Positions 16,958 to 17,612 of a stretch of DNA of 64,000 bases are shown one piece after another (position 1 is the first letter of the stretch; the number at the start of each line of letters is the position of its first letter). The notes below the pieces were generated by a model. It did not search any database. It was given only the letters and a program-made list of their open reading frames with translations, and had not been told where the DNA came from. This DNA comes from Escherichia coli (lineage in GTDB: Bacteria; Pseudomonadota; Gammaproteobacteria; Enterobacterales; Enterobacteriaceae), in assembly GCF_046105845.1 (NCBI RefSeq), contig NZ_CP151004.1; one strand, given 5' to 3'. The position numbers and the translations under genes are program-made.

Positions 16958-17224
16958 ATGGATATTAACAACAAAGCCCGCATTCATTGGGCATGCCGCC
17001 GTGGTATGCGCGAACTCGATATTTCAATCATGCCGTTTTTCGAACATGAGTACGACAGCTTAAGCGATGACGAAAAACGCATCTTTATTCGTCTGCTGGA
17101 ATGTGACGATCCGGACCTGTTTAACTGGCTGATGAATCACGGTAAACCGGCCGATGCAGAACTGGAAATGATGGTCCGACTCATCCAGACACGGAACCGG
17201 GAACGTGGTCCTGTGGCAATCTGA
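16958..17224 (+). CDS. sdhE: FAD assembly factor SdhE (also called CptB antitoxin)
   Basis: 88-aa [46 protein letters not shown]... with the conserved RGxxE motif. Confidence 0.9.
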
Positions 17225-17612
17225 TTTGCGCGTCTCCTGGCGCGCACAGTGGCTTTCCTTGCTGATTCATGGGCTGGTTGCCGCTGTTATTTTACTCATG
17301 CCCTGGCCGCTCAGTTACACCCCGTTATGGATGGTGTTACTTTCGCTGGTGGTGTTTGATTGCGTTCGCAGCCAGCGACGCATTAATGCTCGCCAGGGGG
17401 AAATTCGCCTGTTGATGGACGGGCGTTTGCGTTGGCAAGGGCAGGAGTGGAGCATCGTCAAAGCGCCGTGGATGATTAAGAGCGGCATGATGCTGCGTTT
17501 ACGTTCTGACAGTGGTAAACGGCAACATTTATGGCTGGCAGCCGACAGCATGGATGAAGCCGAATGGCGGGATTTACGGCGGATATTGTTGCAACAAGAG
17601 ACGCAAAGATAA
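17205..17612 (+). CDS. ygfX: Inner membrane protein YgfX (CptA)
   Basis: GTG start overlapping the sdhE 3' end by 20 nt; 135-aa ORF with two hydrophobic helices. Confidence 0.85.

Follow-up and report, generated by a model that had tools for sequence, protein, structure and literature searches.

The sdhE-ygfX gene pair of Escherichia coli: the start codon of ygfX, a conserved overlap and its initiation region

In the 64,000-nucleotide stretch of Escherichia coli DNA analysed here (the window), sdhE and ygfX form a chromosomal housekeeping operon that is already known and annotated. Taken together, the evidence makes it fairly probable that this operon combines a true GTG start of ygfX at position 17205 with an ancestral overlap of the two genes and with a dependence of ygfX translation on that of sdhE. 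The value of the analysis as a discovery is small, as the genes, their overlap and both functions proposed for them are found in databases and in the literature. What it adds is confirmation that the GTG start is real and that the overlap is ancient in Enterobacterales; modestly new are the depth and exactness with which the overlap is conserved, the turnover of start codons, the correspondence between residue 7 of YgfX and the stop codon of sdhE, and the frozen 16 nt before the GTG. Nowhere in the operon is conservation higher than at the junction of the two genes, whose −20-nt overlap offers a testable case of what we infer to be coupling between a soluble assembly factor and the membrane protein that partners it.

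The first gene of the pair, sdhE (also ygfY or cptB; 16958-17224, plus strand), runs from an ATG to a TGA stop at 17222-17224 and encodes an FAD assembly factor of 88 aa; a Shine-Dalgarno-like stretch, GGAAGAAG, read from the sequence at 16950-16957 on the same strand, abuts the ATG, and the best anti-Shine-Dalgarno duplex of the gene amounts to −4.3 kcal/mol. The second, ygfX (cptA; 17205-17612, plus strand), begins with GTG, is placed by the list of open reading frames in frame +1 with respect to sdhE, and encodes an inner-membrane protein of 135 aa. The 20 nt shared by both, GTGGTCCTGTGGCAATCTGA (17205-17224, plus strand), are read as M-V-L-W-Q-S-(D) in YgfX and as (R)-G-P-V-A-I-stop in SdhE, the GTG being located within the Arg83-Gly84 codons of sdhE (CGT GGT), 17 nt before its stop. 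The pair is flanked by ygfZ (15735-16715, minus strand) on one side and by fldB (17652-18173, minus strand) and xerD (18285-19181, plus strand) on the other. The gene identities, the 88-aa SdhE, the GTG start and the 20-nt overlap named in the preliminary description are exact to the base when set against the list of open reading frames, Pfam and PGAP; in the closest E. coli genome PGAP annotates an 'FAD assembly factor SdhE' and a 'protein YgfX' whose boundaries and 20-nt overlap agree with those given above.

The assignment of both proteins is firm. SdhE matches the Pfam family PF03937 (Sdh5) over residues 7-79 (E 5e-26, 90.8 bits, cut-off 27) and the NCBIfam equivalog NF008130 over its full length (1-88 of 88; 198.4 bits, cut-off 120), and it is 100% identical to PDB entries 1X6I and 6C12; the same sequence has been crystallised with SdhA (6C12) and with FrdA (6B58). 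Its translation contains R15-G16-M17-R18-E19, an instance of the RGxxE motif described as conserved in the SdhE family (PMC8621075). SdhE promotes the covalent attachment of FAD to SdhA and FrdA (PMC5042078), and sdhE and ygfX have been reported to be co-transcribed and YgfX to bind SdhE (PMC5042078, PMC3985639). YgfX is a member of PF07254, named Cpta_toxin (E 1e-49, 168.5 bits, cut-off 27.3), its residues 2-131 aligning with positions 1-132 of the 133-position profile. In the AlphaFold2 model of YgfX (pLDDT 93.8) a strand at residues 2-8 is followed by helices at 12-31 and 36-62, six more beta-strands at 65-112 and a helix at 118-134, and the predicted fold has the pattern of the family, two N-terminal transmembrane helices and then a soluble domain. 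The protein may tentatively be described from this model as a strand at the N-terminus, a pair of transmembrane helices and a helix-capped, PH-like beta-sandwich; a sequence search of the PDB with YgfX found no solved relative, and a Foldseek search of the model against the PDB gave no significant match.

The operon of E. coli K-12 has the same SdhE, the same boundaries and overlap, and the same neighbours, ygfZ, fldB, xerD and dsbC; nothing substantive differs between the two, and the DNA of the locus is 98-99% identical to that of most E. coli. The sdhEygfX pair of Serratia sp. ATCC 39006 is likewise a co-transcribed two-gene operon, in which SdhE serves to flavinylate SDH and FRD and interacts with YgfX, a membrane protein (PMC5042078); regulation by RsmA, RsmC and FlhDC and a connection with prodigiosin have been described for Serratia alone. 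Shewanella oneidensis also possesses both families, in the same order and co-transcribed, as ygfY-ygfX, but a 37-bp gap instead of an overlap has been reported between its genes, and in experiments the pair acted neither as toxin and antitoxin nor as an SDH flavinylation factor (PMC8621075).

With a 1-kb query the locus was found in 5,425 of 5,426 complete E. coli genomes, in a median of one copy and mostly at 95-99% DNA identity. Only seven of the 5,425 are at least 99% identical to the window over 1 kb (16700-17700), and the closest species-level loci to that segment are those of Escherichia sp. E1V33 and E. coli 2012C-4221; judging by sequence, an uncommon lineage of Escherichia is the probable source of the window. 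All 94 related loci resemble the window in having ygfX directly downstream of sdhE. Wherever a locus extends far enough upstream, the gene directly before the pair is ygfZ-like; in most loci, across the families of Enterobacterales, fldB-xerD-dsbC come after the pair. The sdhE-ygfX locus is a core, syntenic one and is not mobile. It is also worth mentioning that in Enterobacter sp. EA-1 sdhE gives no 88-aa translation unless an indel is assumed, and that in NZ_CP196031.1 the match to E. coli breaks just past ygfX, beside a gene of the OmpW family, which suggests a local rearrangement.

The overlap was followed in two sets of loci. In the family Enterobacteriaceae 80 species-level loci were retrieved with a reduced-alignment pattern derived from YgfX residues 3-12, a set that is biased towards the conserved N-terminal peptide and unbiased at the DNA level and at codon 1; the window and a single E. 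coli genome bring the total to 82. The GTG start, the TGA stop of sdhE and the 20-nt overlap, GTGGTCCTGTGGCAATCTGA, are identical in all of them (82/82). More distant loci were obtained through whole-protein matches to divergent cluster representatives, with no selection on the N-terminus, and eight of these (L084, L085, L087, L088, L089, L090, L091 and L095; according to the cluster names L087 is Edwardsiella, L089 Providencia and L090 Mixta) have the GTG and the 20-nt overlap as well, with YgfX proteins 29-59% identical to that of E. coli. Paired changes in the two peptides are seen in the distant loci (MVLWKS with RGPVEI*, MAPWCC with RGPMVL* and MVRWRA with RGPVAR*). In the loci from L084 to L095, compared with positions 17220-17225 of the window, residue 7 of YgfX tracks the stop codon of sdhE, Asp (GAT) accompanying TGA and Asn (AAT) accompanying TAA.

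The start codon itself has turned over in several lineages. L093 has its GTG 6 nt further upstream, giving a 26-nt overlap, and GCG at the position equivalent to the E. coli start; Leminorella has an ATG 9 nt upstream and a 29-nt overlap; and L094, from a low-GC lineage, has an ATG start and a 14-nt overlap. In one lineage, L082, the genes do not overlap: sdhE is shortened to 85 aa, the tail of SdhE being absent, and ends with TAA, which is followed by one base and then by the GTG of ygfX. This GTG is preceded by a strong Shine-Dalgarno sequence, AAAGGAAG, and the N-terminus of YgfX, VLWRAELRVSW, is retained; the old TGA of sdhE is still visible within GCT GAA. The comparison of these sequences indicates that the overlap arrangement is ancestral to much of Enterobacterales and, with identity in 82/82 loci and retention in distant members of the order, that it is no annotation accident. 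The check proposed in the preliminary description, conservation of the overlap and of the GTG in related genomes, thus had a positive outcome, both in the 82 Enterobacteriaceae loci and in the distant Enterobacterales.

The start of ygfX at GTG 17205 is indicated by comparative and structural evidence. A TGA at 17169-17171 bounds the ygfX frame upstream, and from there to 17205 the frame holds no ATG, GTG or TTG; the GTG at 17205 is the sole canonical start in the open frame ahead of Leu8, the next candidates being TTG 17226 (Leu8) and ATG 17298 (Met32). Initiation at one of these two codons, by which the overlap would vanish, was the case that the preliminary description gave as its refutation, and such a downstream start is highly improbable. 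It is true that TTG 17226 lies 1 nt past the sdhE stop, at a classic coupling distance, and that some database entries of homologues are shorter at the N-terminus. Yet across the 82 Enterobacteriaceae loci the Leu8 codon is TTA, CTT, CTG, CTC, CTA, TTG or ATA, being other than TTG in most genera, and TTG 17226 is not a conserved start because this codon varies among genera. Residues 2-7 of YgfX are conserved in the family, including the lineage that has no overlap; the PF07254 profile begins at residue 2; and in the model residues 2-8 form a strand (pLDDT about 93). A start at Met32 would remove this strand together with the first transmembrane helix. Codon variation, the conserved N-terminus and the modelled strand thus led to the rejection of both downstream candidates. 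In an alignment of 38 full-length sequences the motif M-V-x-W-x-x-x-L-R-x-S and the called N-termini align down to about 25% identity; the search of the whole library with a YgfX HMM yielded only 135 clusters at 50% identity. Literature searches found nothing specific on ribosome-profiling evidence for the ygfX start. Public YgfX orthologues from Edwardsiella and Providencia (P0266-P0282) are given lengths of 49, 97, 113-125 and 136-140 aa; annotation pipelines disagree on the YgfX start when the GTG is located inside the upstream gene.

Conservation at the junction exceeds that of the rest of the operon, and a frozen block of 37 nt (17189-17225, plus strand) stands out; it comprises codons 78-88 of sdhE with the stop and the base that follows, and contains the initiation region of ygfX. 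Codon use was scored in 78 unique Enterobacteriaceae sequences. No degenerate codon between positions 2 and 77 of sdhE is invariant; all of them vary, and for most the entropy is high. Past this point the codons are ACA at position 78 (73/77), CGG at 79 (78/78), AAT at 80 (72/78), CGG at 81 (65/66) and GAA at 82 (70/70), and those at 83-88 and the stop are CGT, GGT, CCT, GTG, GCA, ATC and TGA, each in 78/78 sequences. In ygfX the Asp7 codon is GAT in 76/76, and the Leu8 codon immediately after it is variable, six different codons being used. The longest invariant run in the alignment of the operon is 21 nt (17204-17224), the next longest being 5 nt. At each of the 20 overlap bases one of the two frames has a non-synonymous position, and double coding alone can account for the invariance of the overlap. 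It cannot explain the 16 nt before the GTG, because these belong to one coding frame only and, in many genera, the ygfX frame has a TAA at −24; translation of the ygfX frame ahead of the GTG as a cause of the freezing is excluded by this TAA and, in the window, by the TGA at 17169-17171. The T that follows the UGA of sdhE is fixed too, and likewise lies beyond what double coding explains. The freezing of the 16 nt and of this T points to selection at the RNA level on the ygfX initiation region.

It is conceivable, though rather doubtful, that the 37-nt block is a dedicated cis-acting RNA element in sdhE that sets the ratio of SdhE to YgfX. Such an element may take the form of a hairpin sequestering the start, a site capturing back-scanning ribosomes or a binding site of CsrA/RsmA. 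The block holds two GGA motifs, one of them in the loop of a predicted hairpin, and RsmA represses sdhEygfX of Serratia partly independently of FlhDC (PMC5042078); literature searches found nothing specific on CsrA binding at this locus. The predicted hairpin (17190-17215, plus strand; stems CACGG/CUGUG and ACCG/UGGU, loop GGAACG) encloses the GUG of ygfX, whose U and G it pairs, and its status is uncertain. Its minimum free energy is −10.8 kcal/mol, with a z-score of only −0.59 against shuffled sequences (−0.77 for the wider region); most Enterobacteriaceae are predicted to form it too, with energies of −8 to −11 kcal/mol, the Buttiauxella/Cedecea group has a weaker version, and loci of other families have none. 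The hairpin gives no covariation readout, since the 3' arm falls in double-coding, invariant sequence. With these z-scores and no conservation outside Enterobacteriaceae it was set aside as a significant structure and is kept as a hypothesis.

The preliminary description held that the coupling of the two genes is clearly visible in the sequence; this applies to the overlap, while translational coupling itself is our inference. On balance we consider it somewhat probable that translation of ygfX is coupled to that of sdhE, because the GTG appears to lack a Shine-Dalgarno sequence at a suitable distance and lies in a stretch of 37 nt that is frozen at synonymous sites. The best anti-Shine-Dalgarno pairing of ygfX, −4.3 kcal/mol, is formed by a GGGA that ends 1-2 nt before the GTG, and the duplex ranks 28th among 41 neighbouring genes; in the distant loci the sequence before the ygfX start is A-rich and without a Shine-Dalgarno motif, and the sole lineage lacking the overlap has a strong one there. 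In the proposed mechanism ygfX translation would rely on ribosomes translating sdhE, which might scan back and reinitiate past the UGA, open the initiation region, or both, and the outcome would be a low output of YgfX tied to that of SdhE. These correspond to the two coupling routes described in a review, scanning and reinitiation after the stop and an upstream ribosome that unfolds an inhibitory structure (PMC12548453). A precedent for coupling with the start before the stop is the coat-lysis pair of phage fr, with an overlap of −38 nt (PMC12548453). As in sdhE-ygfX, the downstream start in the coat-lysis pairs of phages fr and MS2 lies tens of nucleotides before the upstream stop; in the phages, whose longer overlaps of −38 and −50 nt, against −20 nt here, have been tested experimentally, expression of the lysis gene depends on upstream translation (PMC12548453); for sdhE-ygfX such a dependence is proposed. 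Termination-reinitiation reportedly works well mainly between −8 and +10 nt, its efficiency falling steeply outside this range (PMC10666635), so that an overlap of −20 nt argues against simple reinitiation. Interacting proteins are enriched among overlapping gene pairs (PMC10666635), and coupling fits with this enrichment, with the reported co-transcription and with the binding of YgfX to SdhE. Fusion proteins of SdhE and YgfX, 166-217 aa long, occur as singletons in metagenome assemblies (P0003-P0013 and P0021). A programmed +1 frameshift producing such a fusion was considered and rejected, since the fusions switch frame at differing positions; by their sequences they appear to be assembly indels or sporadic mutants and not products of recoding.

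Against coupling may be set the view, which we regard as unlikely, that the overlap is real but neutral: ygfX would initiate independently, residues 84-88 of SdhE would be an overprinted by-product, and the invariance would reflect double coding. Selection on the two peptides alone would indeed freeze all 20 nt; the Pfam domain (residues 7-79) does not reach the SdhE tail, which is missing in L082, homology with the Vibrio protein stops at residue 80, and reinitiation is reported to be inefficient once the spacing exceeds −8 nt (PMC10666635). The freezing, however, extends through the 16 nt before the GTG, in sdhE codons that are single-coding and that include a rare CGG kept in 78/78 sequences, and in the many genera with TAA at −24 the ygfX frame is non-coding in that stretch; the base after the sdhE stop is frozen as well (GAT in 76/76). 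Independent initiation would, moreover, have to proceed apparently without a usable Shine-Dalgarno sequence, and the sole lineage that lost the overlap has gained a strong one.

Even less probable is the reading of the pair as a toxin-antitoxin system of type IV, in which YgfX (CptA) is a membrane toxin blocking the polymerisation of FtsZ and MreB, SdhE (CptB) is its antitoxin, and the overlap keeps the antitoxin in excess over the toxin. A known type IV system, CbtA/CbeA (YeeV/YeeU), is prophage-borne and patchy in distribution; like the claim made for CptA it involves FtsZ and MreB as targets, and like sdhE-ygfX it is a small two-gene cassette. Its proteins, however, belong to unrelated families, and sdhE-ygfX is core and syntenic and its proteins are reported to interact (PMC3985639). 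The toxin-antitoxin and the FAD-assembly descriptions, both mentioned in the preliminary description, are both to be found in the literature (PMC8621075, PMC3985639). In favour of the former are the name of PF07254, Cpta_toxin, and the layout of two adjacent, overlapping and co-directional genes, with the small 'antitoxin' gene upstream of the 'toxin' gene that it overlaps, which is the typical order in such operons; in addition, PMC8621075 and PMC8132199 cite an E. coli CptA/CptB report based on overexpression and a CptBA-like system of Acinetobacter, formed by a homologue. The accessory, patchy or mobile distribution that is typical, though not strictly defining, of toxin-antitoxin cassettes is not that of sdhE-ygfX, a core and syntenic locus present in 5,425/5,426 E. 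coli genomes that retains its ygfZ and fldB-xerD-dsbC neighbours. Dy et al. detected no toxin-antitoxin phenotype (PMC3985639), and the interaction of the YgfX and SdhE proteins contradicts the definition of type IV (PMC3985639, PMC5042078). In Shewanella the ygfY deletion is viable, the double deletion gives no rescue of growth, and YgfY fails to neutralise YgfX (PMC8621075). SdhE, finally, has an independent role with SdhA and FrdA that is structurally documented (PDB 6C12, 6B58). The core, syntenic distribution of the locus argues for caution with the 'toxin-antitoxin' label in annotations.

The spacer between ygfZ and sdhE contains a −10-like hexamer, TACAAT (16917-16922, plus strand), as a weakly supported candidate promoter element. 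In 79 Enterobacteriaceae sequences it lies within a conserved island (16906-16922) of an otherwise variable spacer, the mean column identity being 0.89 in the bin that starts at 16906. A scan for consensus sigma-70 promoters gave no full match and no −35 partner for TACAAT, which by its sequence is possibly a −10 element. At the other end of the operon, between the convergent ygfX and fldB genes, a hairpin of the form UGACGGC...GCCGUCA (17616-17645) is predicted to fold with a minimum free energy of −22.5 kcal/mol and a z-score of −4.0, and none of 200 shuffled sequences folds as well. It is likely a transcript end or terminator; it looks like the terminator of fldB, because its T-rich tail is found solely on the minus strand, and perhaps it is also the structure at the end of the ygfX transcript.

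Several other elements were recognised elsewhere in the window. Rfam matches above the gathering threshold place 6S RNA (ssrS) at 1976-2159 and a SIB RNA, of the sibC/ibsC type I toxin-antitoxin locus, at 1177-1327, both on the minus strand. The site of the programmed +1 frameshift of prfB, AGGGGGTATCTTTGAC, is present as an exact match at 21809-21824 on the plus strand, and the matching E. coli record labels prfB with 'programmed frameshift'. A single tRNA-Gly gene with the anticodon CCC is located at 58788-58861 on the plus strand.
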